This document shows, piece by piece, positions 8,475-38,841 of a DNA stretch of 64,000 nt; within the stretch, counting starts at the first letter, position 1; every line of letters begins with the position of its first letter. Both the position numbers and the translations under genes were made by a program. The notes under the pieces were generated by a model, which worked only from the letters and a program-made list of their open reading frames with translations, did no database searches and was not told where the DNA came from. The stretch is from a virus. Location: the IMG/VR virus record IMGVR_UViG_3300037245_003639, one strand, 5' to 3'.

Positions 8475-8989
8475 TGGTTGACTTCCAGAAGTGACAAAAT
8501 TTCATCCATTTTTATCTGCTTGATAATATCAGATGCTTCATCACGCATAGATAACTGAAGATCATAAACCTTCTTGTGCCAATCATAATGTATGTTAGGA
8601 CATTCATGCTCGTCCTGTTTTGTTGTTGGACTTCCAGCAGCAACATATTGCTTGTGAGAAACAGAACAACAACTACCCAAAACCTTGCGAACAACACTCC
8701 TGTTAACGTTCATCTTCGTATCACAAATGCCACAATAAACACTCTCATATTTATCCGGACTTGTTGATAGTTTGTCCTGAAAATGTGCATTAGGCTCTTT
8801 TGTCGAACGTTGAGGAAACATCTTCTGTTTGCCCGGGGGATAATAAGATCCTGGATTGGGAGCAAGCGGCAACTTGCCCGCATATACTCGTCTGTTGTTC
8901 TTATCCCTTATGACAACTTCAGCGTCACCAGCAGGATTTTCGTGAACTTGCACCAATTCAAAATCCGCGAATACTTCCTCATTCATCAT
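8471..8989 (-). CDS. Hypothetical protein (172 aa)
   Basis: The ORF is preceded by motif copy c. Confidence 0.5.
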   Translation of the reverse strand: MMNEEVFADFELVQVHENPAGDAEVVIRDKNNRRVYAGKLPLAPNPGSYYPPGKQKMFPQRSTKEPNAHFQDKLSTSPDKYESVYCGICDTKMNVNRSVVRKVLGSCCSVSHKQYVAAGSPTTKQDEHECPNIHYDWHKKVYDLQLSMRDEASDIIKQIKMDEILSLLEVNQ

Positions 8990-16147: not shown

Positions 16148-19100
16148 TTAGCGCCACAACTCGTGGCTTCCTTTGTCGTCTGATAGTTTTCGATAATCCT
16201 CATTACGCTTATCGAGCGTAAACATACTCTGGACTGTTTCTCTCAAATCACTTTTGTTGTCATCCTGTGTTCCAGAGGTTTTTAGGAGAAACGGTGTTTC
16301 AACTGAATCTTTCGATGCTTGCCGACGCAACCCCTTAGTTCCTAATGCTTTTGTAATCAACTTTTGATAGTCAGCTAACATTTCGGTAGATGCTTTGGAC
16401 AACTCTTTTACTTTTCCTGGTAGTTCGTCTATTGAGATTTCATTGAGTTTCAACAGTTGTCCAGCAATCTTGGTTGCTGTTTCTACTTTTGAGGCCATTG
16501 CGGCAATATCGTTTTCTTTGCCCAAAATCTGTTCCTGTTTCTCAGGATCGTATTTTTCTACTGTGTCGTATTCGGGATGGCTGCCTCCGCCCGCTGGGTA
16601 CTCAGGGCCATCCAACTCATTCGTGTATGTATGTTCACGGGCAAGTTGGCCGCCTTCTGGTGCCTCGGGGACGCTTGGTTCGCTCATCCCTTCACTCGGC
16701 TTCTTCTCGTCAACTCCCAGGCTGTGTGATTCGTCAGCGTGTGTCTTACCTTGACCTGGGCCAGAGCTTGGGTTTAGATCTGGATCGTCTTCTAACTTCC
16801 TTACGTTCTTCGTTGTAACTGTTTGGCTTTCCTTTATTTTCTTGTAATTTTGTGCTTTACGTCCACAGGTACATGGACACTTGTCACATTTTTCGCATAC
16901 TTGCTTATCTTCCATGGGTTTGAATTTGGCGATCAGGACGACGTTTTCGTTTTGATCTACATTGAGGTCATAGATCATGCCGTCTGTCAGTTTGACCTGT
17001 TCTTCACCTGCATCTGCCTTCTTCATAAAAGCCGCATAGAATTTGTGGTCTTTTGAGACAGTCCAGATGCGGGCCGTTTTGGTATTTGCCATATCGTTTC
17101 CTTCGCTAGTTGTAGCGGCAGTTTTGACTGGTTTCTTCGACGCAGCCGCCGAAGTCATTGGCCCACCGCCCTGGTTTCCATCAACCACATTGCCTTTTTC
17201 TGGCTTGAAATGTTGCTCACCAGCCATGAGAGGCGAGCCATGCGGGACAGTAGGCAGATCGCCAGTCTCGCTAATAGTAATATCTGCTGTTTCATCACCC
17301 AGCGTGGCTTGTGCCCGTGGGACATCTGGTTTCGACTTTACATCGGTGGTAAATGAATCTTCATGGCCCATACTCCCACCGTCTTTTATTTTTCCAATCC
17401 CGTCAGTTTCTTGGACAGGAGTTGCTTTGATCTTTTCGCCTTCACTGGCGCCTTTGTACTCCATCTTTTTGACATCGCCGTCCGACTTAGCCGCAGTTTT
17501 CTGAGCAGCAGCTTCGGCTTGGGCCAAAAGACCTCCAAAAACGCTATCGAGAGAGTTTTGGTAAGTCTTGATGGTGCCGCGCTTCATGCCGTATAGCTCG
17601 TCGTCAAGACTTGCTTCTTTTACTTGCCCCTCGGTTTCTGCGAAGGGGAGTCTAGATTCTGGCTTTGGTTTTGACTGGATTTCTGGTTTGGATTCCATTG
17701 GCATTGGTTTGGCTTTTGCTTCTGGAGCTTCCATTTCCATTTCCTTGTCTTCGCCAGTAGTATGCTTCTCTAGCATCTCCTTTTCTTCGGGCTCTTCAAA
17801 GGGATTTCCTTCAGCCTCGGGTTCTCCTTCGGGCTCTTCTTCAACCAGCCCTGGAATCCCCTCTTCGCTTTCTTCCATTCCTGGAATTCCCTCTTCGTCT
17901 TCACCCTCTTCCACGGTATCTTCGGTGATATCTCCGACATCGAGTATGTCATCACCTGTCTCATCAATCATGCCTTCGCCAAGTTGTCCCTGGAGAGCAT
18001 CAAAGAGTACTTGAAGGGCTTCCATGGCATCTGGAGGGAGCTGAATCGTGATACCTTCGTCACCGAGACCAATGAGATCATCGTTGGCCATTTCATCGAA
18101 ACCGCCATCCATGTCATCGAAACCGCCATCCATTTCAATGCTCATGTCCATCTCGGTACCGTTGTCTTCAGCCATATCCATACCCATCTCATCGGTATTG
18201 GTTATGACATCATCCATTGGCTGAGGAATGTCAGGCATTTGTTTCATGCCGCCTGGTTCACCCATCGGATCTCCTAGCGGAGAGCCGCCCATTGGACCCG
18301 CCGATGGATCTGCCATAGGATCTGCTGCTCCCGGCTCAGCCATTGGCTTGGGCATAGGAGAAAGCATCTGATCTGCTGGGGCAGCGCCCATTCCTGGAGC
18401 GCCCATTGGTTTCGGTGCCATTCCTGGAGCGCCCATTCCTGGAGCGCCCATTCCTGGAGCTTCCATTGGCTTCGGTGCCATGCCTGGAGCGCCTATTGGG
18501 TCTGTCGGAGGAGCCATCATTGGCTTGGCCTGACCGCCACCTGGTAGCTTCGGCGTCTTAGTTGCCGGGTCCATTGCTCCACTTGGAGCAGGCATTGGTT
18601 TGGCATGCATTGGTTTGGCACGCATTGGCTTCATCTGAAGTGGATTGATCTGAGCAATAGATTCGATGACCAATTCTTCAGCAGAAGCATATGCTGCTCG
18701 GAGAGAGTCACAGACCGTGCAAGCATCGCCCACGTCCATGTTGTTATCACGGACGAGCATAGCCACGCAGGTCTTCATTGGGCTACTGACCATGGGGTTC
18801 TTGTTGGCTTGCATCGAAGCAACCTTCGCTGCCAAGCCATCGGAATAGATACCCATCGAAGAAAGCTGACCACAAACGCAATTAGCTAAAGGTTTGCCTT
18901 CACATGGACCGCTCATTGCCGTGGCATTTTCACCAAAGCGGCGAGCGATACGTTCCATGCAACTGGCGGATGGGAATTTATCAAATTTATCGTAACCCTT
19001 CCAACGTGCGGAAGCGGCAATCTTCTTCAACGGTAGAGGCTCTTGCATTGCAGCCTCAAGGTCGAGTGTACCAGCCTTGGCCATCTTCAAGATGATTTCA

Positions 19101-21583
19101 CCCTGCTCTGCTGCGCCACGAAGTTGACCAAATTCACCCCAAGACATGCCGTAATCGTTCAGCGAAGTGATAAACGCCGTGCGAAGACGATTACAACCAG
19201 AGCAAGATGCTTCGCTTGTCATGGGTTGCCAAATATACTGGCCATAGAGACGATTCTTTTTGCCTTTGGCCATTTTGACTTGGACGTTGAATTCTTGCAT
19301 ACATTCCCAACAGATTCCATCGTTGCCTTTATGTGTAGCAGACTTATCTATTTCAGTGTCGCTGCTACCACAACTGGGGCATACTTTACCAAATTGAACT
19401 TCTTGAGATGCAAGTTTCTCAAGAATTCGTGGGGTCAGGCGGAAACTGGCTGCGACGGGGACATTAGGAAGTGTCGTGCCACCTTCTTCTATGCCTGCTT
19501 CCATGCCAGCCTCTTCGGCTCCGATGCCCATGCCTTCTTCTTCTCCAAGCCCAAATCCGCCTTGTTCCTCGTCGCCTGTCTCTTGAATGGTTTCAGGCCA
19601 CTTGGCGACATCGAGTTTGACACTAATATTACCTTCGGCTCCACAGTTATTACAGCGGAACTCACCATTATCTACGTCAACGTCTTCACCGCCACATGCT
19701 GGACAAACGGAACCTGGTGGTTTAGGTTCACTTCCGCCAAGTCCCTCTTCCTCTCCCATCATAGGATCTTGTGATAGTGCTTCACCGGCAGGAGGTTGAC
19801 CCATATCTCCGCCGCCGGGTGGAGGTGCTGGATTGGCCATGTCTGGTCCTGCTGCTGGCGGCATGCCGCCTGCTCCACCCATTTGAGCGGTTTTGACTGT
19901 TTCTGGGTTAGAAGTCCTTCGAAAGAGATTTACTCCACTACCTTCTCTTGCTTTCCTTTCCTCTTCTTCTGCTGCTTTTTCTGCTGCTTCTTTTTCTCTT
20001 CTTGCTAGCGTAGCTGCGCTCGGAGCATTTGCTTCTTCCTCGGGTGTTTCTTCTGCTTCTTTAGCCAGTTTTCGACGATTCTCTGCTCGCTTGGAGAGTT
20101 CTTTCTCGTGTCTACTGGCTTCGATGAATTGAATCTCAAAAGCCCCCTTTTCAGTATTGACATCGAGCATATTGGGGACAAGTTCTATTTTCTTTCCTAC
20201 TTTGGCTAAGATCTTCTCAGAAGCAAATTGAGCTGCTGCTTTAGCAAACTCATCTTTGTCTTCAACTTTCACACCAGTTGCTTCTACTACTTCTTCAACT
20301 GGGCCAGCGTAGGCATAACGGCCATCCGAATCATCGCCTTCGACGATATCTTCTCTTCCTGCCAGAACTTGCTGGAAGACTGAAGTATTCTCTGATTCTT
20401 TGACGTTGCTATCAGAGTTTGCAAGCACTTGGTCTGATGCATCGTTGATGCGGTCAGCAAATGTTGCATCAGCGGCCATTGCGACGAGACCCTCAACAAT
20501 ATGGCGAGGGTCATAAGCGATTTTGGCTAATTGACGAATAAGGACATCTGCGGCCAAGAATTCTGACCACTCGGTACCAGTGTTCGCTGTCTTGCCGAAG
20601 TGTCTGGCTTTTGCGATCTTCTTATTAATGACAGAAACGTCATGCTCAGCATAACGTTTCAGGGTATCAGCCAGAACTCTGTATTTTGTTTCATCCGATA
20701 CAAGCCGACTGGCAATGCCTGCCAATTCTTGAGGGGTAATACCTACGGAGATAACTGTCTTGCCGAAAGCATCCAGAGCCTCTTTGATAATCTTCCCAGC
20801 AATTTCAGCCGTCAATCTGGCGAGTTCGCCGTCTTGCTGAGGGAGCTGGTCTTTACCTTCGGTGACTGTTAGAGGTTCGGTCCATTTATGGTGACGCAGC
20901 AACTCCATGAGTTGCTTCTCGCCGGTTTGTTTGTGTTGTTTCTCTAGACCGCCGTCATATTTCGATCCGATTTCGCCACGCTCTGAAGCTCCAACGTCGG
21001 TATAGTCATCGACGCCTTGGTTGAATTGATCTTCGGTGACAGTGTTGCGGTCTTCTTGCTTCCAATCACCAGCGGTTCGGTCAACCCCATAAAAAGTAGT
21101 CCGCTCATCGCGGAATTGACCTTGGGTGATAATGTCGTAGGTTCCAGGGCGCTGGCCATGTTCTGGAAGTTGTCTCTGAGTAATATTAGTATAGTAGTCT
21201 TCCCAACGAGGGTGAAGACTGGTTTTCTGGTCGTCAAACTGTTTTTGGGTAATCTTGTCAGAGGTGTCAGTGTCAAGAGTGGCATGCGCTGCCTCTTTTT
21301 CCATCTCTTCTGCATCAAAGCTCGCTACAAATTCACCTAAAATTTCTTGTGCTGCGTCCTGAGGATCTGAATTTATGAGTTCGACAAGACTGTCATCTAG
21401 TTCCGCAACCCTTATTGCAGCAATTTTCTCTCCATCGAAAAAATGATCGATGCTGGTTTTGGAAATGATGATTTTGTATTGGCCTTTCTCGGCCTCTACT
21501 TTGGTGGATACGTTAGAACTCGCTTGCTTGATCCGGTTTCGGAGCTTGTGGACGAGTTCTTGACGTTTGGCTGTATCTAACAT
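16148..21583 (-). CDS. Giant acidic protein of about 1811 aa with Pro/Met/Gly repeats and two Zn-ribbon modules. Likely an internal virion protein.
   Basis: The corrected start is MLDTAKRQ, preceded by TAGGAGCC and a 6-nt spacer. It contains (GAPGM)n repeats, the motifs CPACGG...CNNCG and CPSCGSS...CWEC, and long Asp/Glu-rich tracts. Confidence 0.6.
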   Translation of the reverse strand: MLDTAKRQELVHKLRNRIKQASSNVSTKVEAEKGQYKIIISKTSIDHFFDGEKIAAIRVAELDDSLVELINSDPQDAAQEILGEFVASFDAEEMEKEAAHATLDTDTSDKITQKQFDDQKTSLHPRWEDYYTNITQRQLPEHGQRPGTYDIITQGQFRDERTTFYGVDRTAGDWKQEDRNTVTEDQFNQGVDDYTDVGASERGEIGSKYDGGLEKQHKQTGEKQLMELLRHHKWTEPLTVTEGKDQLPQQDGELARLTAEIAGKIIKEALDAFGKTVISVGITPQELAGIASRLVSDETKYRVLADTLKRYAEHDVSVINKKIAKARHFGKTANTGTEWSEFLAADVLIRQLAKIAYDPRHIVEGLVAMAADATFADRINDASDQVLANSDSNVKESENTSVFQQVLAGREDIVEGDDSDGRYAYAGPVEEVVEATGVKVEDKDEFAKAAAQFASEKILAKVGKKIELVPNMLDVNTEKGAFEIQFIEASRHEKELSKRAENRRKLAKEAEETPEEEANAPSAATLARREKEAAEKAAEEEERKAREGSGVNLFRRTSNPETVKTAQMGGAGGMPPAAGPDMANPAPPPGGGDMGQPPAGEALSQDPMMGEEEGLGGSEPKPPGSVCPACGGEDVDVDNGEFRCNNCGAEGNISVKLDVAKWPETIQETGDEEQGGFGLGEEEGMGIGAEEAGMEAGIEEGGTTLPNVPVAASFRLTPRILEKLASQEVQFGKVCPSCGSSDTEIDKSATHKGNDGICWECMQEFNVQVKMAKGKKNRLYGQYIWQPMTSEASCSGCNRLRTAFITSLNDYGMSWGEFGQLRGAAEQGEIILKMAKAGTLDLEAAMQEPLPLKKIAASARWKGYDKFDKFPSASCMERIARRFGENATAMSGPCEGKPLANCVCGQLSSMGIYSDGLAAKVASMQANKNPMVSSPMKTCVAMLVRDNNMDVGDACTVCDSLRAAYASAEELVIESIAQINPLQMKPMRAKPMHAKPMPAPSGAMDPATKTPKLPGGGQAKPMMAPPTDPIGAPGMAPKPMEAPGMGAPGMGAPGMAPKPMGAPGMGAAPADQMLSPMPKPMAEPGAADPMADPSAGPMGGSPLGDPMGEPGGMKQMPDIPQPMDDVITNTDEMGMDMAEDNGTEMDMSIEMDGGFDDMDGGFDEMANDDLIGLGDEGITIQLPPDAMEALQVLFDALQGQLGEGMIDETGDDILDVGDITEDTVEEGEDEEGIPGMEESEEGIPGLVEEEPEGEPEAEGNPFEEPEEKEMLEKHTTGEDKEMEMEAPEAKAKPMPMESKPEIQSKPKPESRLPFAETEGQVKEASLDDELYGMKRGTIKTYQNSLDSVFGGLLAQAEAAAQKTAAKSDGDVKKMEYKGASEGEKIKATPVQETDGIGKIKDGGSMGHEDSFTTDVKSKPDVPRAQATLGDETADITISETGDLPTVPHGSPLMAGEQHFKPEKGNVVDGNQGGGPMTSAAASKKPVKTAATTSEGNDMANTKTARIWTVSKDHKFYAAFMKKADAGEEQVKLTDGMIYDLNVDQNENVVLIAKFKPMEDKQVCEKCDKCPCTCGRKAQNYKKIKESQTVTTKNVRKLEDDPDLNPSSGPGQGKTHADESHSLGVDEKKPSEGMSEPSVPEAPEGGQLAREHTYTNELDGPEYPAGGGSHPEYDTVEKYDPEKQEQILGKENDIAAMASKVETATKIAGQLLKLNEISIDELPGKVKELSKASTEMLADYQKLITKALGTKGLRRQASKDSVETPFLLKTSGTQDDNKSDLRETVQSMFTLDKRNEDYRKLSDDKGSHELWR
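18384..18500. repeat. In-frame tandem repeats, cattcctggagcgcc units, encoding (GAPGM)n in the giant protein
   Basis: Direct repeats of 15 to 30 bp are visible. Confidence 0.6.
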
Positions 21584-21674
21584 ATTTTTGGCTCCTATTA
21601 GTATGCACAATAGGTAGACAATACCCCATAGGCATTGAATTTTCTTTCAAATTCTGGCACAGATTTCCTTTGTA

Positions 21675-21705
21675 TTTTTATCAAAACCCGTGTCGAAGTG
21701 TCAAA
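21675..21705 (-). promoter_or_regulatory. Candidate sigma70-like promoter upstream of the giant gene: TTGACA-N17-ATAAAA with TG
   Basis: The minus-strand sequence TTGACACTTCGACACGGGTTTTGATAAAAAT lies about 100 nt upstream of ATG 21583. Confidence 0.3.
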
Positions 21706-23116
21706 TCTGGAATGGTAACTGAAGTTTTTTCTTCGGTTTTATTTCTAGTTCTAACCTTAAGAGTTTTTCCCTGGTAAAGTTCAAGTCAGTCTTTAGGTCC
21801 AATTCCTTTTCCTTTCGAATCAACTGGCTAGACAACTTATCAAAGTTTATTCTTCTTGTAGTTGCTTGTGGAGAAGTAATAGTCCCCACCTGACCTGCTG
21901 GTCCTGACTTTATTCCACCTCCAGGAGCAACTGAGTGAGTAGGAGGTTGATCACCCATTTCCGGCGTAGGGGGTTGCCCTGGAACTTCAGCCTCTGGTTG
22001 TCCTGTTTCTGGTGGAGATTGAAGGCGCCCATAACCCTGTTGCGTCAATTCATCCGTCACGGTTTGAAGATCAGCCAGAACTTTTACTAAATCGCTCAAA
22101 AACTCCAGATCAAGTTGGTCTTTTTGTGCCAACATAGATTGGGACACAGAAGTTATAGCGTCCAATGCGTCCTGTAATTTCTGAATCTCATTTTGCCCAG
22201 CCAATTTCATGCAGCCTTGATCTGAGCACATGACATCAGTCTCAGCCGCAATTCTTAGCAATTTCGGTAGCCGCTGTCCTATATCAGCCACTTTTGCAAG
22301 AAAGTCCTGGGGATCTATTACTTCTGTGACACCGCAATCTGAGCAAGCCGGGTTGACAACGAAACTGTTCTCGATGAACTTGATGCCGTAGTTGTATTCA
22401 TAGGCTTTATCACTGACTGCATAAGTATTTGTTTCACCTTTTTTACACTGACAGAGAGGACATTCATCTTCATCGCCATGTTCATGGTATTTGCATTTCT
22501 GTTTCTTGGCTTCGATCTGCCGAGTTTTTCTCTCTCGAATATGCTCACAATACTGGTCAGGAGTCTCTGCTTTATTGTGGCAGATAGAGCAGATAGAATA
22601 CTTGACTTGGCATCCCATTGAAGTTCCCATGATATATTCTTCTTTGATACCACGGGCCAATTGGGGATAGGCTTCGGCATCCACCCGAGCAATAATCATG
22701 ATGCCTTTACGATTTTCATCCCACCAAGAATGAACGACTTTACCTCGGGCAGCTTCGGCATCAGCGTTATTGTGGTTTGTGAAAACCGGAACTCCTACAA
22801 ATGTAGATGTGGCTTCCTTTAGTTCGGTATATCCAAACCAGTCACCGTTATCGTTCATCTCATCTGCTTTGATGGCAAAGCATTTGACGAATAGAGAGTC
22901 AGGGTGAGATTTGATTTCTGCTTCAAGATCGAAACGAGTAGCGTCACTATCCGTTCCCATCTCAGCCTCTTTATTGGATGCCGTGATTATCCGCAATGTA
23001 GCAGCTAGAGCTTCCTTATCCGCTTCAACTGCCTGATCTTTGAAAAACGAATATCTTGTCGGCGTATTGAGGAGCTTTGGTTCTATGAATATGAATTGGG
23101 CTATTTTTTCGAACAT
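21701..23116 (-). CDS. Cys-rich protein in the structural operon, function unknown (471 aa)
   Basis: It carries a cluster of at least ten Cys residues with CxxC spacing (CSICHNKAETPDQYC, ECPLCQC, ACSDCG and others). The C-terminus is Pro/Gln-rich. Confidence 0.55.
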   Translation of the reverse strand: MFEKIAQFIFIEPKLLNTPTRYSFFKDQAVEADKEALAATLRIITASNKEAEMGTDSDATRFDLEAEIKSHPDSLFVKCFAIKADEMNDNGDWFGYTELKEATSTFVGVPVFTNHNNADAEAARGKVVHSWWDENRKGIMIIARVDAEAYPQLARGIKEEYIMGTSMGCQVKYSICSICHNKAETPDQYCEHIRERKTRQIEAKKQKCKYHEHGDEDECPLCQCKKGETNTYAVSDKAYEYNYGIKFIENSFVVNPACSDCGVTEVIDPQDFLAKVADIGQRLPKLLRIAAETDVMCSDQGCMKLAGQNEIQKLQDALDAITSVSQSMLAQKDQLDLEFLSDLVKVLADLQTVTDELTQQGYGRLQSPPETGQPEAEVPGQPPTPEMGDQPPTHSVAPGGGIKSGPAGQVGTITSPQATTRRINFDKLSSQLIRKEKELDLKTDLNFTREKLLRLELEIKPKKKLQLPFQI

Positions 23117-23117: not shown

Positions 23118-26100
23118 TTACTCCTCGTTTAGGACTTGTAGCAAAACATCTAGTTTGTCTGCTAGTTTAGTCTGCCCTTGTTTATCCAGTTTGTTTGCCA
23201 AACTAAGCAGAACATTTTCTTTAGATGAGTGCCGCAATTTAGCTAGCATAGGATCTGGACCTTTACGCACAAGCGGCTTCATCTTTTTTCGTCTACCAAT
23301 ATAACCAGGCTCTGACATGGGGAATTCTTTGGGCGCCGTTGGCATAGCTTTTGGCATAGCATTGGGTTCTTCCTCTTCCTGCCCTGGAGGAAAAGCGATC
23401 CCGGGTTGGCCCGGAGGTATCTGTTCTTCCGGTAATCCTGGTATCTGTGGTGCGAGTTGTCCAGGAGTAGGCTGTTCCACTGGAGGAACTTCTTGTATTG
23501 CTGGAACTATCTCTTCTGGCTGTTGCGGTGGCGCTTGCTCATAACCTGCTCCAGGGGGAGCCGCCATAGGTTGCTCTTGCACGTTAGCCGCGGTCTCATC
23601 ACCCGCTGCCATAATATCTTCTAAAACTGCTGCTGCTCCCAAATCTTGAGAATCAACGATGCGAGACCTATTCATTGGGTCAGTAATAGCGATGTCCAGA
23701 TCAACTCCCATTTGTACAAGTTCTTCTTTCACTTTGACCATGGTTTTGTCCATGGCTTGCTTGAGTTTTTCAATATTCAAACTTATAGGAACAAAAATGA
23801 TTGCCAAGTCTTCCTTGAGTTGAGGATAGAGTCTTTCCAGCTCAGCTAAGGCATCTTGGTATGAATACGTATTCGGCAATCGGACAGAGAATGACTCTTT
23901 GGTCTCTTTACCGCGCAGAGTTCGCGCGAAACCAGATCCGGAACTTTTTAGCCCTATCCAGAATGTCATATCTTCCATCACTCGGACAATCCCATGCGGA
24001 CGTTCTGGCTGGAAGACTTCTTCTCTTTCTATTCCTTGTTGAGGATGCTGTGTCACACGTCCTGCTGCCGGATCTGGAGCCCCTTCGGGAGCAGTGTAAA
24101 GCCCGGGCTCTGCCGCGCTTCTTCCGGGTCTTGCTGCGCGGGGCCTTCTGCGATGTTTACTCGAAAGTTCTGACAATAATGGATCGTTCGAACCCTCCGG
24201 TGAAGTGAAAGCATATTTGATACCGAAGGTGATTTTACCACCATCATTTTTGCCTGTGGTTGAAGAATAGCTTCTTCCAAATGATAGATGATGAGCTTCG
24301 TCATCCGCAGTACGCTTTTCTTTAGGTACTGCGGCCATATCCAAGGGCTTCAGCCCCGCAGCTTCTCGTTTGGCATTTTTTTGTTCAATTATTTTCTGAG
24401 CAGCATCAGGATCGTATTTTTGGACAATACGTTCTTCACAAGCTCTTACCATCAGAGCATGTAAGAAGTCCATCATCTTAGATACTGCATATCCGTTTTG
24501 ATGAAGTTGCTGGTACAGGTTGTCAGAAATTCCAGTGCTCTTCGCCTTTTGCGGTTTTCTGCCACTGGCTTTCAAAGTGCTCAACAGAGCTTTCTCTTCT
24601 TTGCTCTCACCTCCTGGCCGCATACTGTTTAGTCTTTGTAATCCTTCAGGGTCAGATTGAATGAGTCTGATGAGTTCGGTGGATTCTGCCTTATCAGAGA
24701 AATTTACATCTTGAACCTTGTTAGTAAAAAATGCTGCAATTCTTTCTCCGTCACGCAGATGTTCTAGCCAACCTGAATTTAATATCTGTTCAGCTTTTTT
24801 GCTGACTATCGCTTTATTCCACTCTGACGCGTAAGACATCTGAAGATATTGCTCCAACTCATCTTTGCTTCTGGGTTGCCCTGTGGCCGAATCGTAGAGA
24901 AGATTTTCCTGGAAAGATTCGGCGCTAGTGCGATTTCCAAGGCTATTTTGTCTCTGGTACTTTCGATCCAGTTCTTCTTGAGCTAAGTCCAATTCTTCTT
25001 GGGTTCTGGGCCGTCCAGTGGACGGATTATTTGGCTCCACTTCAGTGCGCTGTCCCACTGTACCAATGTATTTGGACCAAACATCCATTGCTCCCCCGAT
25101 GTCCTGGCCTCGTCGAGCTTTGTCGAAAAGCTTTTGGACATTTTTGCCAGAAGCTTGGCGTGTTCTCTGCCTGCCAAATTGTCTTCGACCTGTATATTCT
25201 GGGTTTGGCTCTTGTAATGTTGCTAACGCTTTAGTGGCCCACTCCCCCACTCTTGGGTCAGCGAAGAATTTCTCTACTAATTCGTTGCCGGTATTGACCA
25301 AAACGCTTCTGCATAAATTCCCCTGATCAGTGTTATATGTAACTCCTTCACCCATATGCTTGGGTAAAGATATCACTGGAGGAAGCACCATCATCTGAGG
25401 AGCTAACATGCCTGGCGAGACTAACGACGGATCAGAATCAAACCCATTGGATGTATAAGTCATGCTGTAACCAGGGACAATAAATCCACCCTTTTGGGGA
25501 ATATTCTTCGTGGTTGTATTCAGCTTCGCTCTCTGGACTTCACCGGGTTCATGCTTTTGTAAAGCATACAACAGATACTGAAGCTCTTTGTTATTCAAAT
25601 CAAGACAATAAGAGTTTTTAGTTAGTCCTTTACCCTTTAGAGCATTTGTTCTAAACCCTCGCATGGGTTGTCCTTGTGAGTCAGTCCCGAAATTAGCCAT
25701 TTGAACGTTCATTTGTTCGGGTTGCCAGTTTCCGTCTGGACTTAGTCGCAATACCTCTCTTTGTATGTCTGCCTGAGTCGGAGCAGAGATGGATTTCTCA
25801 TATTGCTCGATAATCTTTGCTTCTTGTTGTTTTGCTGCGTGACGTAAAGTCTCGTAGCGTATTCCTTTGTCCTGTGATTCTGATGCTCTGCTGGCCGTAA
25901 TGGCTTGATCAATATCTTTACGGATAACCTGACGCAGCAATCTCGGGTCCATTCGAAAGCCCTGGTAAATCTTCGTTTGTATAGCCCGCAATAGATATGT
26001 AGGATATGTGATTTTGAAGACAGCATCGGGACCGAACTCTCGGTCGTTACTGTTTTGGTAAGTGGCTTTAGGTACACCTTGATCTGGTTTGTTCATGCGA

Positions 26101-26834
26101 TTTGCATGTTGAGTCCAGAATTTGGTAAGAGGGATTTGTCCTGCTGATGTCGGAATAGCATGTCCAGCAACGCCTCTTTCGGTTTCGCTTTCCACAAACG
26201 TCCTTAGTTGCTTTTCGGTTGGCCTGCCATATTGCAGATTCGCCGTATATCCTGGGACCAGTGGTACTCGATGCTCATTTACTGCATTCACAAAATCCTT
26301 GAATCCAGGAACTGCTTCATCTATAAGACTGACACTGTTTTCGGCTGCTTTGGCAAAATCACCAACAACAGGGACTACTAGTCTTTGGAATTCGAATTCC
26401 ATACGCAGTGTGGAGCCCTCTTCTTCCTCAGATATGTTGACTTCTTCATTCCCCGGGAAATATGCGTTCAAAGCCCTGTCAAGATTCTGGCCCTGACTGA
26501 GTTGATTTTTAAGATTTGGAATATCGCGAAGAAGAGGCCTAAAATAAGGCTCGAAAGCTTGAACCAACTCACCTTCAATTTGTTTGATGCGCTCAGTCTT
26601 AGGAGGAATAGTCCATTTCGTGTTAGCCCGAGCGTTTTTCAGTTCTTTGTTCGACCATTGAGCCATTGCTTCTTTGCGAAGCGCTGCTTCTTTAATTCGA
26701 TATAGCCGCGTCTCCGCTTCTTTTATCAATATGGCCGTAATAGAGGCGTCCCCGCTGGCAGTTTTTTGAACGCCATGCAGCTTCCCGTTAGCTTCCTGAA
26801 GCAATTCTTTTTTGAATTCTGCTAGGTCGATCAT
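23118..26834 (-). CDS. Large virion-module protein of 1238 aa with a Pro/Gln-rich N-terminal region
   Basis: The ORF is tightly coupled to its neighbours. I recognise no motifs. Confidence 0.55.
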   Translation of the reverse strand: MIDLAEFKKELLQEANGKLHGVQKTASGDASITAILIKEAETRLYRIKEAALRKEAMAQWSNKELKNARANTKWTIPPKTERIKQIEGELVQAFEPYFRPLLRDIPNLKNQLSQGQNLDRALNAYFPGNEEVNISEEEEGSTLRMEFEFQRLVVPVVGDFAKAAENSVSLIDEAVPGFKDFVNAVNEHRVPLVPGYTANLQYGRPTEKQLRTFVESETERGVAGHAIPTSAGQIPLTKFWTQHANRMNKPDQGVPKATYQNSNDREFGPDAVFKITYPTYLLRAIQTKIYQGFRMDPRLLRQVIRKDIDQAITASRASESQDKGIRYETLRHAAKQQEAKIIEQYEKSISAPTQADIQREVLRLSPDGNWQPEQMNVQMANFGTDSQGQPMRGFRTNALKGKGLTKNSYCLDLNNKELQYLLYALQKHEPGEVQRAKLNTTTKNIPQKGGFIVPGYSMTYTSNGFDSDPSLVSPGMLAPQMMVLPPVISLPKHMGEGVTYNTDQGNLCRSVLVNTGNELVEKFFADPRVGEWATKALATLQEPNPEYTGRRQFGRQRTRQASGKNVQKLFDKARRGQDIGGAMDVWSKYIGTVGQRTEVEPNNPSTGRPRTQEELDLAQEELDRKYQRQNSLGNRTSAESFQENLLYDSATGQPRSKDELEQYLQMSYASEWNKAIVSKKAEQILNSGWLEHLRDGERIAAFFTNKVQDVNFSDKAESTELIRLIQSDPEGLQRLNSMRPGGESKEEKALLSTLKASGRKPQKAKSTGISDNLYQQLHQNGYAVSKMMDFLHALMVRACEERIVQKYDPDAAQKIIEQKNAKREAAGLKPLDMAAVPKEKRTADDEAHHLSFGRSYSSTTGKNDGGKITFGIKYAFTSPEGSNDPLLSELSSKHRRRPRAARPGRSAAEPGLYTAPEGAPDPAAGRVTQHPQQGIEREEVFQPERPHGIVRVMEDMTFWIGLKSSGSGFARTLRGKETKESFSVRLPNTYSYQDALAELERLYPQLKEDLAIIFVPISLNIEKLKQAMDKTMVKVKEELVQMGVDLDIAITDPMNRSRIVDSQDLGAAAVLEDIMAAGDETAANVQEQPMAAPPGAGYEQAPPQQPEEIVPAIQEVPPVEQPTPGQLAPQIPGLPEEQIPPGQPGIAFPPGQEEEEPNAMPKAMPTAPKEFPMSEPGYIGRRKKMKPLVRKGPDPMLAKLRHSSKENVLLSLANKLDKQGQTKLADKLDVLLQVLNEE

Positions 26835-26835: not shown

Positions 26836-27243
26836 TTAGCCCTTTACATGCTTAGGTATATCTATTCCCATTAGCTCGTTCTTTTGGTAGTTTCCTGCAT
26901 TCTTCGGCATTGGGACGCCCCACATATCTGTGGCGTGAGAAAGAGCACCCTTCAATGATTCAAAATACTTACCTGACGGGGAATAGGCTTTCTTCTTGGG
27001 GTCTTTCGGCATTCGCTTAACCCCAGCAAAAAAAGATTTTCCATAACGCTTGGAAACAGCAGGGCCAACCACTACGTAATAGGGATGGCCTGACTCGTGA
27101 TCAAAACCTTCCCATCTGAAATAAGAACCAGGTAAAATCTTCTCGAATTTTACTTTTGCATCTTTAGATTTCTTGCCGTATCGTTCTTCCCAACGAATAT
27201 GTCTTTCTTTTAGCCGTCGCCGGCCCGCGATGATAGTTTTCAT
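26836..27243 (-). CDS. Small basic protein (135 aa)
   Basis: The RBS is GAGGGTG. It overlaps the upstream gene in an ATGA arrangement. Confidence 0.5.
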   Translation of the reverse strand: MKTIIAGRRRLKERHIRWEERYGKKSKDAKVKFEKILPGSYFRWEGFDHESGHPYYVVVGPAVSKRYGKSFFAGVKRMPKDPKKKAYSPSGKYFESLKGALSHATDMWGVPMPKNAGNYQKNELMGIDIPKHVKG

Positions 27244-29675
27244 TGTTGAAACACCCTCGAAGATGCTTGTTTGTTGTATTCGGTCACCGAGAAATCACCG
27301 GGAGTCTGCCCAAAGCTTTGTCCCAGATACGACTTAAGTCGTCCGAAATATTTCCCGTAATCGCGGTGACAGTTTTTTAGTCTTCCTTCCTCGTCAACCG
27401 AGAAGAGATAGACATTATGTCTGTGTCCATTACCATTAGAAGATGCGTGTTTCTGTGGCCCTTTCATCAAAGTTTGGGTATAACTAGATACAGTCTGCTT
27501 CACTGCCTGTGGAGATTCCTCAATAGCTTTATCATCAAACCTCAATACGCTCCATCCTCGTTGAGCTAACAAATTGTCTCTTTCCTGATCGTCTAGCTGT
27601 TGCTCTGGCTGTCCGTGCCAAATCTCGCCATCACATTCAATCGCTAATTTGATTGGAGGTATGGCGAAATCCAGCAAGAAGGGTTTGCCTCCCTTGGGAT
27701 TCTCTATGGGAAACTGGGCTTTGATAACTTGTTGAGCGTTGATACCAAGATTAGACATCACATCAGTTAGCATGCCAGCCATGGACTGTTCGATACGGGT
27801 TAGCTTGACCATGGGACTCATGGCTGCCATTTCCTCTGGGTCCATTTCCTGACCTTTGCCACCTTTGCCCTTTTTCATTACCTTGCCACCTTCAGCAGCC
27901 GGTGACATTGGCATTCCTCCGCCCATGCCCATATCTCCGCCAGGCATTCCTCCGCCCATGCCCATATCTCCACCAGGCATTCCACCTGGGGCCATGCCAC
28001 CCATCTCGCCACCAGCGCCACCGGCCATTCCACCAGCACCCATTCCGCCCATGCCGCCCATGGCTCCTGCTCCTGCTCCGCCAAGCATGCCACCTGCCGG
28101 ACCCATCTGAATCTGTTCATAACGCTGACGTTTAACTTCCTGGTCATAGTCTAGATCCATTTCCTCCATGAGTGTTTGGGTAGAAATGACTTGTTTATCG
28201 TGAAGTTGCATCAACTTCTCATACCATTGATTCTTGTCTTTCAGTTGCAAGTCATTCCATTTGATAGTCGGATACAAGAAGACCGGCTCGCCAACTTCAG
28301 CGCTGGCTTCTTCGTCGATGAAACCTTGCATTTCCGCGATAGGTTTGAAGATGTTCTCTTCTGCCCATTCGGCCAAAGTATGACGCCAAGACTCGATACG
28401 ACGGATAAGTGTTTCGACGCCAACCTGAGCACTTTGATATCCAGACATCTCGCCGTTGAGCAAAGACTGGTTCAACATAAAGCCATCAAGAATCTCTTTG
28501 CCAACGTATTCCATTTCCTGAGTGACCTGTAGAATCTTGCCAGTTGCCCCATACCACTCGTATTCAAAGTTATGGTGTGTAACAATGGTAAGATTCGGGT
28601 CGTTAGCAGTTGCTGCCAATTGCTGTTGGACATCAGCAATGTCCGCGCTGGTGGCAGGACGGTTATCGCTACCAATCTTGACAACTCTCACTGGAATAAT
28701 CAGTCTCTCAGCGACAATCCAGTTAGCAGTCATGATTTTGGTTTTGTATGCCAGAGTCGTAAACAAACGACGAATCAACGACGATCCATAAGTGCCATAA
28801 GGAACTGGCATATGTCGGAGGTGAGAAACTGTCCTGTTCGATAGCGGAATTGGTTTATTCTGTAAGACCAGACTTTTGACATAATCTGGGATGCGGTCAT
28901 AGACTACCTTGGGTTGCTTGTAAAAGACAATTCGCTTCAGTTCTTCGTCGGGAACCAGGACTACTGCGGGCTCATCCGCTAAGACCGACTGCTGAACTTC
29001 AATCCAGTCAGGATTAAGAACAATCAATCGTTTGAATGAGCCACCCGGATGGTCGCATTGCTCACCAGAATCGGGGTCAACACCTCTGCCCTCACAAACT
29101 GGACATTCCACGTCAGTATGGATAAAGACATCTCCGAGCATGAAATATTCAGAGGCAATCATCTTGAATTTCTCATTAAGTTTAAGACGTTTGACTACGT
29201 GATGTTCAAAGAACTTCAGGACTTTACGACTGGTACATTCTAACTTGAAGCCATTCATAGGGAAGCGACTGTAGAAGTCGATGGCAGCAGCAACTTTAGG
29301 TTCATTTTCGTAGAAGAAACGACACCATTGATAGATTTCACGTCTACGGGATGCAATTTGCCAGTTCTGGGGAGTATGTAATGGAGAGAACCACATAGGG
29401 TTCGTCATCATATTACTAACGCCAGAAGCCTGAGCCATTTTTACCCAGGCATCGGGAGCCATTGCATATTGAGTGCTAGCGTATTTGAAATTGGGATCGT
29501 AATATGGGAAAAGAGCTTGGCTGTCTACAGCTCGCTCAGCATCAAGTTGTCTAATGCGATGTTCCGAAGCCATCTTTGGTGGCATGGCATTGGGATCTTT
29601 ATATGTATCTCCCATCACGATTGGCTGATGCCATTCGGGATCATCGGGAAGAAGTATATTGCGGCCTTGTAGCAT
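27240..29675 (-). CDS. Large structural protein (811 aa), portal-like by size and position (hypothesis). It has a Gly/Met-rich linker and a C-terminal DUF559/Vsr-like endonuclease domain.
   Basis: The C-terminal region PFLLDFAIPPIKLAIECDGEIWHGQPEQQLDDQERDNLLAQRGWSVLRFDDKAIEE matches the DUF559 or very-short-patch-repair-like PD-(D/E)xK fold pattern (VDF...IEVDG..H.......D..R...L...GW.VLRF). A (GGM)n linker precedes it. There is a CPVCEGRG...C zinc knuckle mid-protein. Confidence 0.6.
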   Translation of the reverse strand: MLQGRNILLPDDPEWHQPIVMGDTYKDPNAMPPKMASEHRIRQLDAERAVDSQALFPYYDPNFKYASTQYAMAPDAWVKMAQASGVSNMMTNPMWFSPLHTPQNWQIASRRREIYQWCRFFYENEPKVAAAIDFYSRFPMNGFKLECTSRKVLKFFEHHVVKRLKLNEKFKMIASEYFMLGDVFIHTDVECPVCEGRGVDPDSGEQCDHPGGSFKRLIVLNPDWIEVQQSVLADEPAVVLVPDEELKRIVFYKQPKVVYDRIPDYVKSLVLQNKPIPLSNRTVSHLRHMPVPYGTYGSSLIRRLFTTLAYKTKIMTANWIVAERLIIPVRVVKIGSDNRPATSADIADVQQQLAATANDPNLTIVTHHNFEYEWYGATGKILQVTQEMEYVGKEILDGFMLNQSLLNGEMSGYQSAQVGVETLIRRIESWRHTLAEWAEENIFKPIAEMQGFIDEEASAEVGEPVFLYPTIKWNDLQLKDKNQWYEKLMQLHDKQVISTQTLMEEMDLDYDQEVKRQRYEQIQMGPAGGMLGGAGAGAMGGMGGMGAGGMAGGAGGEMGGMAPGGMPGGDMGMGGGMPGGDMGMGGGMPMSPAAEGGKVMKKGKGGKGQEMDPEEMAAMSPMVKLTRIEQSMAGMLTDVMSNLGINAQQVIKAQFPIENPKGGKPFLLDFAIPPIKLAIECDGEIWHGQPEQQLDDQERDNLLAQRGWSVLRFDDKAIEESPQAVKQTVSSYTQTLMKGPQKHASSNGNGHRHNVYLFSVDEEGRLKNCHRDYGKYFGRLKSYLGQSFGQTPGDFSVTEYNKQASSRVFQQ
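27911..27990. repeat. 33-bp in-frame tandem repeat, 2.3 copies, encoding GGDMGMGGGMP
   Basis: The sequence gcattcctccgcccatgcccatatctccgccag is directly repeated. Confidence 0.6.
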
Positions 29676-29688: not shown

Positions 29689-32613
29689 TCAGCCGTCCAT
29701 TTCTAGGTCTTTACTTGTCTCATCAACATCGTCCTGGACGCGTTTGACGATTTTAATCAGCACCTGACTATCAGGGGCGCTGTCAATTATACCTCTTTCA
29801 TGTTCATCGCAACTATCTAAGAAGTTATGGATGTCATCTTCATCCCTATTAAAGAGATCCAGCAACTCGGGCCGGAGTCTTATCGTTGGGGTTTCTTTAT
29901 GTAATAGAGGTTTTGCTCTATTGTAAGGAAGTGATCTGCGTATAGGTTCTACCGTTGGTCGTCCTATAGGAGGATCGGTTTGCTCTCTGCTTAGATATGC
30001 TTCTCTGAAGGCGTCGAAATGGCCTTTGTCTGCTGCGGATGCTCTTTCATTCCACGTTAGCTTTTTTTTTTTAGGTTCTACGTCCTCGGGCTCTATGTCT
30101 TTGGGCTCAGGGAATCCACAGAATCCACACGCTTGTTTGTAATTCCAAGAAGATGCTTTGCGACAGTCTTTGTCTTTCTTTTTGTCTTTCTTTTTGTCTT
30201 TCTTGTCGTCTTTCTCTCGGTCTTGCTCTTTCACATGCTGGACGCAGCGTTCGAATTTTGCTTCACCTTCGTCTTTGCCACCGGTGGATTTATTGCAAAC
30301 AGCCCAAGGGTTGTATTCAAAATGTTCACCCTTATAGGTGACACCTTTCTCTTTCTTCGCCTGTTTGTCATGAGATTGACATTTTTGATTGAAGCAGCCT
30401 CCCTTTCCCATCTTTGAGCCACATCTCCGACAGGTGGGCACATCAAATGGTTCTGTGCTAAGCCGTCCGTCAGGGCTACGTCGGCCTCCATCTGCAAACC
30501 CAGTAGACAGGTTGCCTCCTTGGGCAAATCTGTTCATATCGAAAGATATTTTGCGAGTGTTGGTTCTGCTGGCAACTGGGCCTACTCCGTTATGCTGTTT
30601 TTTGGGGACTAACCATAAGGCCGGTCCTGAAGCAGTTGAAACGGCATAATCTGACAGGTGATAATATGCTTTGCGACTTTTTTGAGAAGGATAGACTACA
30701 ATTCCTCCTGCTTGTGATTGTATTGAATCTCCCGTAGCATTTATTAGCTCTTGTAGTGTTTTGGATTGTCTCTCTTGGTCTATCAGATCCATTTCTTCGT
30801 TAGTATACGGTTCTCCCCCATCAGCATATCCGTCATCAGGTATGATCTGAGCAAATCTTTTCATATTGAAAGATGCCTGGCGTTTGCCATTACCGTTGTT
30901 GACAATGACCGCCTTATCTCGGATCTTCTTTAGCCTATCAATCTGCTTAGGATCTGTTTCCTCGGGAGCAGGTAGTGTCATATTGTTTTCGTCCACTATG
31001 GATTGTAGTCTATTATAAGGTGCTTTAATATCACCCATTTCTACATCTGCTGTTTTGAGACTAGATAGGTTGAAACCCTTCTTTGCTATTTTGGGTTGGT
31101 TTTCTTGTTTTGTTTTGTTGGTATACTGAACTGTTTGATGACCACTGGCCTCTTCTCGATTGTCACGAGTTGACTGGGGCTGTTGGACATTATTCTGGTC
31201 TACATCCGTATTCCATTGGAATGGGTCGCCCGTGTTAGTGTCTGGACGATAGCCCCGGTCTTTGCCCTCTGCTTTACGCATGGCTTGCATACGGGATTCA
31301 GTATTGCCCCATGCCGGTGGACGAGCTTTTCTGGTCTCGCCTGGCTTGAGCCGCATTTTGTTTTCTTCAGGGACATTGCGGTTGATTTCAAATCGTTTGT
31401 TGAGATAACCGCCTTTGATATTGCCATCTGCATCAACGTATTCACGGGAGAATTTATCCATGGCGTCAGCTCGCCATAGGGCTTCGCCACAGATGGTCTT
31501 ATTGTCATCGATTACGATTGCATCATGGCAATGGTGCCGACAGATATACTCAGAGACAACATCTCCTGAGCCGGATGGTCCACCTCCTTTACCTCGAAGT
31601 TTCGGACAGATGCGTTTCTCAGTCGGACCATATAGAAGATATTGCTGCCCGAATTGATCCGCAGCCGTTTTTATCACCGTATGGCTATTATTCAAGACCT
31701 GTTCAGACAGGTTGAATTTGATAATACCCTTCGGGTTTTTGTTATCGCTCATTACTGGCTCCATAGGTTGAGGCTCGGGCTGCATAGGTTGAGGCTCGGG
31801 CTGCATCTGGCTTTCGACAGCCGCAGGAGCAATCCAGTTATCGAAGATATATGCCAGATATTGCTCTGCTTCCTGCTTGTCTATTTGTGATGAAAGCCCC
31901 TGAATCTTCTCAAGAGGGCTATTGACCTCCTCATGAGCAGCGGGGCTGACCATTCCCATGATCTCGTTTTTGGCCTGTTCTGATATAGCGTCTTCTCGCC
32001 CCTTTTTACTGTCGTAAGCAAGCAAAGCATCAACGTAGCGTTCTATAAATAGCCCTTTATCAGCAACGTTAGTTTCCAGCGGTTGCACTTGAGCCATTTT
32101 TCTTGATGCTGCCACGGGCATCATCATTTCATTGCCCTGCTGATCTCTTTGAATTCTCAGTAGATTTTGAATCGTCTGACCCAACGGGCCATTCATGACC
32201 ACTTGCTCTGCCTTCTGTAAAAGTTGCGGCTCCAGTGACATCAACTGGGGTTCAGTAGTAATTTGGTCAGATATGTCTCGGTACCTGGCATCATTTGCTA
32301 CGTCTTGAGCAGCAAGTTCGTTAATCAATTGATACCAAACTGTGCGTCCCTCTTGCCCTTGGTTGAATAGATATTCCTGGGCCTGTTTGAGTGTAAAATC
32401 ATCCACAAGCATATCTGCTTGTTCTGCCAATTGTCTATCTTGCAAATCCTCAGATTCAAACTCTTGTTCTGATTGACCTCTATCAACAGCTATTTCATCT
32501 TGACCCTGTTCATTTAACTGATCTGCGATATCATCTAAACGACCGGCCTGCCACATATCTGTGACAGCACCGCCGCTGGGAATATCATCCGCAAACTTCG
32601 AGAAATTGAACAC
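29689..32613 (-). CDS. Large protein of 974 aa with an internal duplicated segment, a Cys cluster and a (DKKK)n tract
   Basis: The internal repeats are ASFNMKRFAQIIPDDGYADGG and ISFDMNRFAQGGNLSTGFADGG. DNA tandem repeats lie at 30167-30216 and 31762-31806. Confidence 0.55.
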   Translation of the reverse strand: MFNFSKFADDIPSGGAVTDMWQAGRLDDIADQLNEQGQDEIAVDRGQSEQEFESEDLQDRQLAEQADMLVDDFTLKQAQEYLFNQGQEGRTVWYQLINELAAQDVANDARYRDISDQITTEPQLMSLEPQLLQKAEQVVMNGPLGQTIQNLLRIQRDQQGNEMMMPVAASRKMAQVQPLETNVADKGLFIERYVDALLAYDSKKGREDAISEQAKNEIMGMVSPAAHEEVNSPLEKIQGLSSQIDKQEAEQYLAYIFDNWIAPAAVESQMQPEPQPMQPEPQPMEPVMSDNKNPKGIIKFNLSEQVLNNSHTVIKTAADQFGQQYLLYGPTEKRICPKLRGKGGGPSGSGDVVSEYICRHHCHDAIVIDDNKTICGEALWRADAMDKFSREYVDADGNIKGGYLNKRFEINRNVPEENKMRLKPGETRKARPPAWGNTESRMQAMRKAEGKDRGYRPDTNTGDPFQWNTDVDQNNVQQPQSTRDNREEASGHQTVQYTNKTKQENQPKIAKKGFNLSSLKTADVEMGDIKAPYNRLQSIVDENNMTLPAPEETDPKQIDRLKKIRDKAVIVNNGNGKRQASFNMKRFAQIIPDDGYADGGEPYTNEEMDLIDQERQSKTLQELINATGDSIQSQAGGIVVYPSQKSRKAYYHLSDYAVSTASGPALWLVPKKQHNGVGPVASRTNTRKISFDMNRFAQGGNLSTGFADGGRRSPDGRLSTEPFDVPTCRRCGSKMGKGGCFNQKCQSHDKQAKKEKGVTYKGEHFEYNPWAVCNKSTGGKDEGEAKFERCVQHVKEQDREKDDKKDKKKDKKKDKDCRKASSWNYKQACGFCGFPEPKDIEPEDVEPKKKKLTWNERASAADKGHFDAFREAYLSREQTDPPIGRPTVEPIRRSLPYNRAKPLLHKETPTIRLRPELLDLFNRDEDDIHNFLDSCDEHERGIIDSAPDSQVLIKIVKRVQDDVDETSKDLEMDG

Positions 32614-38390: not shown

Positions 38391-38841
38391 ATCTAAAAGC
38401 TCGTTGTACCCAGTTATTGTATTCTCTATCTGCCAAAGTAAATGCCACTTTACCTTCATGCTGTGAGGCTCTGTGAATAAACTCATAGTTGAAATCAAAG
38501 TCGTCATCTTCGAACGATGATTTTTCAGAATGCAAGATGATATTCCGGATAATCGTTTTCCCTTTGTCAGTTATCTCCACAGTTCTGACGGGTATTCCTT
38601 CCGCCCCTACTCGACTCATGGGTTTATTCTTCACCATGCCCTTCGATGTCAGAGATGCTATAACCATTGGGTCCACATCTTCTGGGACCACCAGATAACC
38701 ATATGAATCCTTTTCTCCCCGCCAAACAGAAAAAAGTGCTTTCGCTTCCTTGTCGGTGATAGGTGAACGAGGAATGATCTGAATTGATTGAAGTGGAAAA
38801 ACGTTAATAAAGTCAAGCAGCGACTGTGCTTTCTTCTTCAT
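38374..38841 (-). CDS. Hypothetical protein (155 aa)
   Basis: ORF. Confidence 0.45.
   Translation of the reverse strand: MKKKAQSLLDFINVFPLQSIQIIPRSPITDKEAKALFSVWRGEKDSYGYLVVPEDVDPMVIASLTSKGMVKNKPMSRVGAEGIPVRTVEITDKGKTIIRNIILHSEKSSFEDDDFDFNYEFIHRASQHEGKVAFTLADREYNNWVQRAFRYGNST

Follow-up and report, generated by a model that had tools for sequence, protein, structure and literature searches.

A portal protein with a C-terminal Vsr/EDxHD-type endonuclease domain in an uncultivated lineage of huge phages

The IMG/VR virus record IMGVR_UViG_3300037245_003639 supplied the 64,000-nucleotide stretch of DNA analyzed here, referred to as the window, and within it a minus-strand open reading frame (ORF) at 27240-29675 encodes 811 aa plus a stop. 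The product of this gene is almost certainly the portal protein of an uncultivated huge-phage lineage, in which the crown end of the portal continues into a flexible leash, a Lys-rich patch and a Vsr/EDxHD-type endonuclease domain with a conserved active site. The closest cultivated relative of the lineage is Bacillus phage G (Donellivirus); its members number in the hundreds in marine and other environmental metagenomes, on contigs of up to 0.4-0.57 Mb. Both parts of the protein belong to known families, and what is new is a portal bearing a fixed enzymatic C-terminal module. The layout of the gene is as follows.

27240..29675, minus strand: portal-linker-nuclease coding sequence, 811 aa plus stop (ORF list, translation)
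29394-29675, minus strand: N-terminal ~95 aa, poorly conserved and predicted with low confidence
28107..29393, minus strand: portal body core (wing, stem, clip, crown), aa ~95-523 (hidden Markov models (HMMs), phage G gp14, Foldseek)
29049..29105, minus strand: CCCH zinc knuckle inserted in the portal body, aa 191-209 (C191-x2-C194...C207-x-H209)
27885..28106, minus strand: flexible Gly/Ala/Met/Pro linker, aa ~524-597 (low model confidence, composition, repeat)
27855..27884, minus strand: Lys-rich patch K598-K607 (KVMKKGKGGK; family motif GK[IV]xK[KR]GK)
27465..27812, minus strand: DUF559/Vsr-like (EDxHD-type) PD-(D/E)xK nuclease domain, aa ~622-737 (Pfam, AlphaFold2, Foldseek, profile)
27630..27638, minus strand: catalytic motif E680-C681-D682, followed by G683 and W686-H687 (38-sequence alignment)
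27243..27464, minus strand: variable C-terminal tail, aa 738-811 (mean pairwise identity 14%, against 39% for the domain)

The ORF list and its translations give an intact frame on the minus strand, whereas the plus-strand translation of 27240-29675 is riddled with stops, which corrects the strand relative to an earlier reading of this DNA made from the letters alone (hereafter the sequence-only reading). That reading had rightly set the gene between those for a 974-aa protein (29689-32613, minus strand, upstream) and a 135-aa protein (26836-27243, minus strand, downstream). Plus-strand ORFs of the region, such as 28176-28532, are mechanical and lie antisense to a strongly conserved gene. An identical 811-aa protein (P0001) is encoded on a 403,172-bp JGI contig and again in an independent Logan assembly.

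The portal body is identified by profile, homology and predicted fold. It matches PHROG 16240 (portal protein; E 7.9e-40), PHROG 2833 (E 3.5e-14) and Pfam Portal_Mu (PF06074; E 4.4e-7, 30.0 bits against a cut-off of 23.9). A tblastn search of 50,697 phage records matched 21 of them, nearly all matches falling under annotated portal genes, and the best was to the portal gp14 of Bacillus phage G (31% identity over aa 79-521, E 2e-69), a protein found in virions by proteomics and cryo-EM (bioRxiv 10.1101/2024.12.16.628780). A full-length AlphaFold2 model built on 60 family members reached a predicted local distance difference test score (pLDDT) >90 over most of aa 110-310 and 430-520; with this model Foldseek retrieved 134 PDB chains at E<=1e-3, and the best 50 of the 134 are all portals, including those of Pakpunavirus, HFTV1, T4 (gp20), lambda (gpB) and HK97. 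A PDB sequence search with the full-length protein returned only low-complexity noise from the linker. Phage G gp14 and the portals of tailed phages share with the 811-aa protein a homologous body, the same fold and the same head module of protease, major capsid protein and terminase. The portal identity that the sequence-only reading had considered is borne out by these comparisons, although the N-terminal body, put there at ~550 aa, stops at about aa 523, and the supposed Cys4 knuckle is instead a CCCH knuckle (C191, C194, C207, H209), with each Cys present in 80 of 84 relatives and the His in all 84. Unlike the 811-aa portal, phage G gp14 (648 aa) and the sister portals described below have neither this knuckle nor a nuclease.

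The C-terminal domain matches Pfam DUF559 (PF04480) over aa 666-729 (E 8.3e-8, 32.5 bits against a gathering cut-off of 20.6), where the motif FLLDFAIPPIKLAIECDGEIWHG...RGWSVLRF occupies aa 666-714; a match to REase_MTES_1575 (34.5 bits) falls just under that family's cut-off of 38.2. An AlphaFold2 model of aa 607-811 has a mean pLDDT of 83; most of the domain lies in blocks averaging 95-98, and the value falls to 87 at aa ~677-696. The best PDB matches of the domain model in Foldseek are Vsr (1cw0, 1vsr), the phage homing endonuclease I-Bth0305I, represented by its catalytic domain (3r3p; TM 0.81), and the DUF559 protein NGO0050 (3hrl; TM 0.85), and a family profile run against PDB sequences recovered 3hrl (E 6.9e-8) and 3r3p (E 6.5e-6). 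The DUF559/Vsr-fold domain proposed from the letters is thus supported by Pfam above its cut-off, by Foldseek and by the profile together. Foldseek also retrieves Toxoplasma gondii mitoribosome chains that share the nuclease-domain fold. Within the variable tail, a beta-hairpin plus helix at aa ~755-787 is specific to a subclade, and its pLDDT exceeds 90 when the domain is modeled alone but is lower in the model of the whole protein.

The active-site residues of Vsr have been mapped onto I-Bth0305I (PMC3239194), and the profile alignment with 3r3p, together with the H-to-D spacing, allowed this mapping to be extended to the 811-aa protein, with the following equivalences.

Vsr E25, I-Bth0305I E170: E629 here
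Vsr D51, I-Bth0305I D196: D669 here
Vsr position F62, I-Bth0305I acidic (E): E680 here
Vsr H64, I-Bth0305I N208: D682 here
Vsr H69, I-Bth0305I H213: H687 here
Vsr D97, I-Bth0305I D222: D696 here

Two alignments, of 38 and 60 relatives with overall identities of only 24-70%, show E629, D669, E680, D682 and H687 to be invariant and D696 to be kept in at least 90%; G683 is also invariant among the 38 diverse sequences. The Trp-His pair W686-H687 aligns with Vsr W68-H69. Vsr, I-Bth0305I and NGO0050 have in common with the portal domain the fold, profile similarity and the same six active-site positions, and to judge from its residues the nuclease domain appears complete and active. The domain is no orthologue of Vsr: it matches none of the NCBIfam Vsr models (the only NCBIfam match is a weak one to a DUF559 model, 14.4 bits against a cut-off of 218), and the sequence after W686-H687 has no Cys/His ligands for the Vsr zinc site. 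I-Bth0305I carries NUMOD/HTH (helix-turn-helix) DNA-binding modules (PMC3239194), whereas Pfam detects no such DNA-recognition module between the portal body and the nuclease, a stretch that is disordered linker. In a further difference from Vsr, EDxHD and DUF559 nucleases, the domain does not stand alone and is not housed by an intron or intein; it forms part of a structural protein and is a fixed trait of one clade.

The inteins of the portal gene family bear on whether this active site is used. Many relatives are 1,100-3,003 aa long (the longest, P0126, has 3,003 aa) and contain Hint, LAGLIDADG and intein Pfam domains; large in-frame inserts are present in 107 of the 116 relatives of at least 1000 aa, with up to four per gene by BLAST count and up to about five suggested by the matched stretches. 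The family has six or more intein sites, which project onto the window protein at approximately 117/118 (between QW and C), ~135, ~194, ~373-378, ~410-414 and 680/681. The last of these lies within the catalytic E-x-D motif: in 10 representatives (P0121, P0123, P0125, P0126, P0138, P0141, P0159, P0168, P0170 and P0171) the intein starts with Cys right after E680 and ends with His-Asn right before C-D-G, so that the pattern runs from …E into C-L-H/L-P …, and from … S/T-H-N into C-D-G…. The window copy, at 811 aa, is intein-free and reads E-C-D-G, an unoccupied site. Inteins typically persist in conserved, indispensable motifs, and the position of this one therefore argues, indirectly, that the motif is needed and that the nuclease active site matters to the phage.

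Between body and domain lies the flexible Gly/Met-rich linker that the sequence-only reading had described, here placed at aa ~524-597; in the full-length model the pLDDT is below 50 over aa 530-612, which is predicted to be disordered. It contains an exact duplication of GGDMGMGGGMP, and Tandem Repeats Finder reports a 33-bp tandem unit x2.2 at 27910-27983 (97% matches). Across 112 relatives the linker measures 84±8 aa and consists of 46.5% G, 14.5% A, 14.2% M and 11.1% P; Lys and Arg are wholly lacking in 108 of the 112, and each linker has ~3.6 acidic residues. The Lys-rich patch is kept at the junction of linker and domain throughout the family, with 32% Lys over its first 14 residues; next come residues that are acidic or Pro-rich, and the nuclease domain then begins with a T-x-x-E helix. 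Conservation of length and composition but not of sequence is the pattern to be expected for a functional tether, and the constraint on length can be taken to argue for a domain that is active in the attached state. From the charge pattern, the leash may repel DNA and end in a DNA-binding head.

The fusion is a property of a whole clade, and its recurrence in more than 100 diverged homologs goes far beyond chance. PF04480 was found in 118 of the 120 best database homologs, the two exceptions being a fragment and an unannotated entry; the assemblies that supplied these homologs are from JGI, ENA, NCBI, Logan and Tara, with contigs reaching 568 kb. When the portal body alone was scanned against 1.84 billion cluster representatives (50% identity), there were 1,469 matches, 329 of them at E<=1e-30, and a nuclease-core HMM run on the best 150 of the 1,469 found the C-terminal domain in 114. 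Of the 36 without it, 26 are counted as fragments or as frameshifted within the linker, and the other 10 are complete sister portals whose body identity does not exceed 39%; every complete portal with at least about 40% body identity has the domain. Identities of body and domain move together (for example 0.84/0.61, 0.63/0.37 and 0.44/0.28 for the two parts), and since the domain is in all complete portals of the clade and in none of the sister clades, and its identity tracks that of the body, a single ancient acquisition followed by vertical descent is indicated. No separate Vsr-like gene that could serve as a 'Rosetta stone' was found beside the sister-clade portals in L001, L002 or L006-L008.

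Sister-portal C-termini are low-complexity tails. Those of P0244, P0251, P0253, P0258, P0247 and P0264 are Q/M-, G- or G/P-rich; phage G gp14 (L001 5839-7785), which shares a low-complexity Gly-rich C-terminal tail with the 811-aa portal, has a Gly/Pro-rich tail only; and in several sister portals the last element is a short amphipathic helix (…RPPIAA…KEIxxIKxQI…). A design of leash plus terminal module appears to be older than the nuclease. The database labels of clade members need correction: the JGI name 'very-short-patch-repair endonuclease' is automatic and misleading, and the NCBI binning of P0026 (a 557-kb contig) and P0099 as metagenome-assembled genomes of a 'Promethearchaeota archaeon' and a 'Petrotogales bacterium' probably reflects mis-binned huge-phage contigs.

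The combination of portal and nuclease, which the sequence-only reading had called unusual, has no counterpart in the collections consulted. None of the 50,697 phage records matches aa 522-811 by tblastn; the best 50 BFVD structure matches are all of <=624 aa, free-standing or homing-type nucleases, and none has the length of a portal fusion; no solved portal structure has a matching enzymatic C-terminal domain; and no description of a portal-nuclease architecture was found in the literature retrieved, including a comparative review of jumbo phages (PMC7824862). The moraphage paper concerns a different lineage. Nucleases are also found at the portal or packaging vertex as T4 endonuclease VII (gp49), T4 gp4 and HK97-type HNH enzymes (PMC9958956, PMC7824862), gp4 being a head-completion nuclease of restriction-endonuclease fold at the packaging vertex (PMC7824862). 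These T4 and HK97 enzymes, which serve DNA packaging or head completion, are separate polypeptides of other folds or families and act on the portal's outer side, whereas here the nuclease is fused to the interior-facing portal end. MuF polymorphic toxins and other injected enzymes packaged in capsids likewise have a head-internal, portal-associated carrier, a C-terminal nuclease-type domain and a small gene immediately downstream. Such systems differ in using a minor head protein as carrier and in having a toxin domain that varies between close relatives; in this lineage the portal itself is the carrier, and its nuclease domain is always the same.

The genes around the portal that bear on its function are the following.

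26836..27243, minus strand: very basic 135-aa protein, coupled in translation to the portal gene (ATGA overlap)
21701..23116, minus strand: prohead maturation protease (PHROG 18299, E 1.8e-10; 34% identity to phage G gp19, E 4e-35)
14467-15336, minus strand: major capsid protein (PHROG 2522, E 4e-67)
42759-44669: TerL, the large terminase subunit, 636 aa

Together with the portal, the protease, capsid protein and TerL form a head-morphogenesis module in the window. Phage G gp19 has been termed the head maturation protease (bioRxiv 10.1101/2024.12.16.628780). The window protease had no match in PDB or Pfam, and a consensus for its cleavage sites could not be deduced. TerL gave nothing informative in Pfam or PDB sequence searches; it aligns with other terminases over aa 113-613, and since this alignment spans the usual nuclease region, the portal nuclease would be an addition and not a replacement. 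The idea that it stands in for a missing terminase nuclease is unsupported, as TerL appears from its sequence to keep that region. The order of genes from portal to major capsid protein is kept in the Tara contig L004, and L010 keeps the genes just downstream of the portal. Homologs of the 135-aa protein, whose start overlaps the portal stop as ATGA, directly follow DUF559-portals in L004 (12250-12693) and L010 (8246-8659), and the L009 homolog (8326-8655) is joined to the following ~1,200-aa protein at that protein's N-terminus; none was found beside the nuclease-free sister-clade portals in the loci examined. The 135-aa protein is a possible partner of the portal-nuclease, and we lean against an immunity protein, given its basic character and the fusion of its L009 homolog to a large protein.

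We tentatively favor, with slightly more doubt than conviction, a mechanism in which the nuclease domains stay tethered and act on phage DNA at the inner mouth of the portal. The portal crown lies inside the capsid, T4 gp20 accepts C-terminal GFP fusions in up to roughly half of the positions of its dodecamer, and the T4 resolvase gp49 (endonuclease VII) is portal-bound (reviewed in PMC9958956). By fold homology and the T4 precedent (PMC9958956), the C-terminal crown should point toward the capsid interior, as in all solved portals. A dodecameric portal would then set twelve nuclease domains per virion around the inner channel mouth, on leashes reaching roughly 6-8 nm as random coils and up to ~30 nm when fully stretched, where they might act on the phage's own DNA as it passes during packaging or ejection. 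Candidate activities include nicking, trimming or gripping the entering end, and clearing or relieving aberrant structures in the course of packaging a ~0.5-Mb genome, in what would be a covalent, interior counterpart of the portal-bound endonuclease VII of T4. Lacking a DNA-recognition module, the domain would depend on the tether for its targeting, and the nuclease would be a fixed, vertically inherited part of the packaging vertex as opposed to a mobile element. A bolder version, in which the portal is itself an enzyme whose twelve active, leashed endonucleases perform a packaging or ejection step that no characterized phage needs, we consider conceivable but unlikely; examples would be nicking against torsional stress, processing or clamping of the leading end, and destruction of unmodified, non-phage DNA entering the head.

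Several observations weigh against tethered action. The domain diverges faster than the body (39% vs 55% mean pairwise identity). Phage G and the sister portals bear low-complexity C-terminal tails without a nuclease, and the properties of the linker may therefore be selected for some other reason. The interior location is deduced from the portal fold; T4 endonuclease VII acts outside the capsid, which makes the analogy topologically imperfect; and an active nuclease beside the packaged genome would be hazardous unless it were structure- or modification-specific, or inhibited. The operon also encodes a prohead protease, and the Lys-rich patch and Ala-Ser motifs that flank the domain, if they served as cleavage sites, could favor release.

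Release is central to the close rival of the tethered mechanism, a capsid-delivered effector: the prohead protease would cut in or near the linker, and the freed ~22-kDa nuclease (12 copies) would be ejected with the DNA to attack host or competitor DNA, the phage genome being guarded by modification or by the specificity of the enzyme. An injected nuclease and a role in packaging or end processing, both raised by the sequence-only reading, are the two top-ranked readings, and delivery strikes us as a distinct yet doubtful possibility. The protease lies within the same operon, the conserved motifs on either side of the domain (GK[IV]xK[KR]GK upstream, K-x-A-S downstream) could be processing sites, and the conserved small gene translationally coupled downstream occupies the position expected of an immunity gene. 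There are also precedents for injected cargo enzymes packaged at or near the portal, among them T4 Alt and IP, the P22 ejection proteins, the N4 virion RNA polymerase and MuF-fused polymorphic toxins, which include nucleases. However, close relatives typically exchange their arms-race effectors and polymorphic toxins, whereas this domain is invariant in kind and vertically inherited clade-wide; the variable toxin domain that marks a polymorphic toxin cassette is not seen, the same domain being present in all members. A mere cleavable spacer would not need a conserved length, the 135-aa protein is strongly basic, unlike the typically acidic DNase immunity proteins, and has a homolog fused to a large structural-module protein in L009, and no protease recognition motif could be established. 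It is less probable still, and in our view improbable, that the domain and Lys-rich patch form a non-catalytic anchor that binds DNA without cutting it, for instance by clamping the first-packaged end or organizing the spool. The cation-free leash that gives way abruptly to a Lys-rich patch has the look of a DNA-repelling tether with a DNA-binding head, and such an anchor would be in keeping with the T4 portal, which may clamp the end packaged first. The fold is not always catalytic, given its occurrence in Toxoplasma gondii mitoribosome chains, which we take to be RAP-domain RNA-binding proteins. Yet the family shows little or no variation at any of the six catalytic positions, among them the metal ligands and general-base His, a conservation that binding alone would not call for.

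That the domain is at present a selfish element, an EDxHD/Vsr-like homing endonuclease fused in frame and carried by the portal gene, is very improbable. Vsr-like nucleases do serve as homing enzymes in phages and mirusviruses (PMC3239194; PMC12768974), I-Bth0305I is among the closest solved relatives, and the domain could have originated in this way. Its distribution is the opposite of the sporadic presence among orthologs that the sequence-only reading had named as the mark of a homing element: it is universal in the clade, absent from sister clades and co-diverges with the portal body, which refutes homing as a present-day function. No DNA-binding domain was detected between body and nuclease by Pfam or in the model, where the linker is disordered, and the nuclease itself serves as insertion site for an intein that has an endonuclease of its own; the true mobile elements of this gene family are the inteins. 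A last alternative is an artefact, a frameshift or misassembly in the repetitive, GGN-rich linker DNA that joined the portal gene to a separate downstream DUF559 gene, and a few database relatives (such as P0172 and P0194) do look frameshifted inside the linker. Its likelihood is negligible: the frame is continuous in >100 independent assemblies (JGI, ENA, NCBI, Logan, Tara), the identical Logan protein among them, and the conserved fusion excludes the error, or absence of the domain from relatives, that had been named as grounds for abandoning the idea.

Portals are regarded as passive or allosteric rings that serve as channel, headful sensor and docking site, and all cutting of DNA is ascribed to the terminase or to accessory nucleases that are separate proteins. 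The presence of a portal-nuclease fusion with an intact active site throughout a lineage implies either enzymatic DNA handling inside the head or use of the portal as a nuclease delivery vehicle, and both bear on how half-megabase genomes are packaged and ejected and on how enzymes are loaded into capsids; were the portal an enzyme, the classical terminase-portal packaging machine would have gained a new catalytic component. There are practical leads as well: a naturally validated site and linker for the display of cargo inside capsids, a compact Vsr-type nuclease module targeted by a tether, and an exceptionally intein-rich gene for studies of intein homing. Database names of the members, including the archaeal and bacterial genome assignments, are corrected in the process.

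Elsewhere in the window, three large head-module ORFs, all on the minus strand, have no Pfam or PHROG match (16148-21610, 1,820 aa; 23118-26834, 1,238 aa; 29689-32613, 974 aa) and may encode internal or scaffold proteins; a ~1,900-aa counterpart is syntenic in L004 and L010. Directly downstream of the major capsid protein gene is a free-standing LAGLIDADG homing endonuclease ORF (13303-14295, minus strand; PF03161, E 6e-19), which overlaps the ORF at 12122-13306 (minus strand). An RNA-repair-like cluster comprises an RNA ligase, an HD plus P-loop kinase protein and a ThiF-family protein, and the window also encodes a CCA/poly(A) polymerase head-domain protein, a peptide deformylase and an HNH endonuclease; jointly, these genes are at 56202-58781, 38813-39643, 52733-53461 and 53761-54444, on the minus strand. 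A ribonucleotide reductase gene is likewise present. The peptide deformylase indicates a bacterial host, and together with the ribonucleotide reductase and RNA-repair-like genes it fits a huge phage of such a host. Most sizeable ORFs of the window are on the minus strand and the GC skew is negative in all 2-kb bins, consistent with a single long co-oriented gene block.

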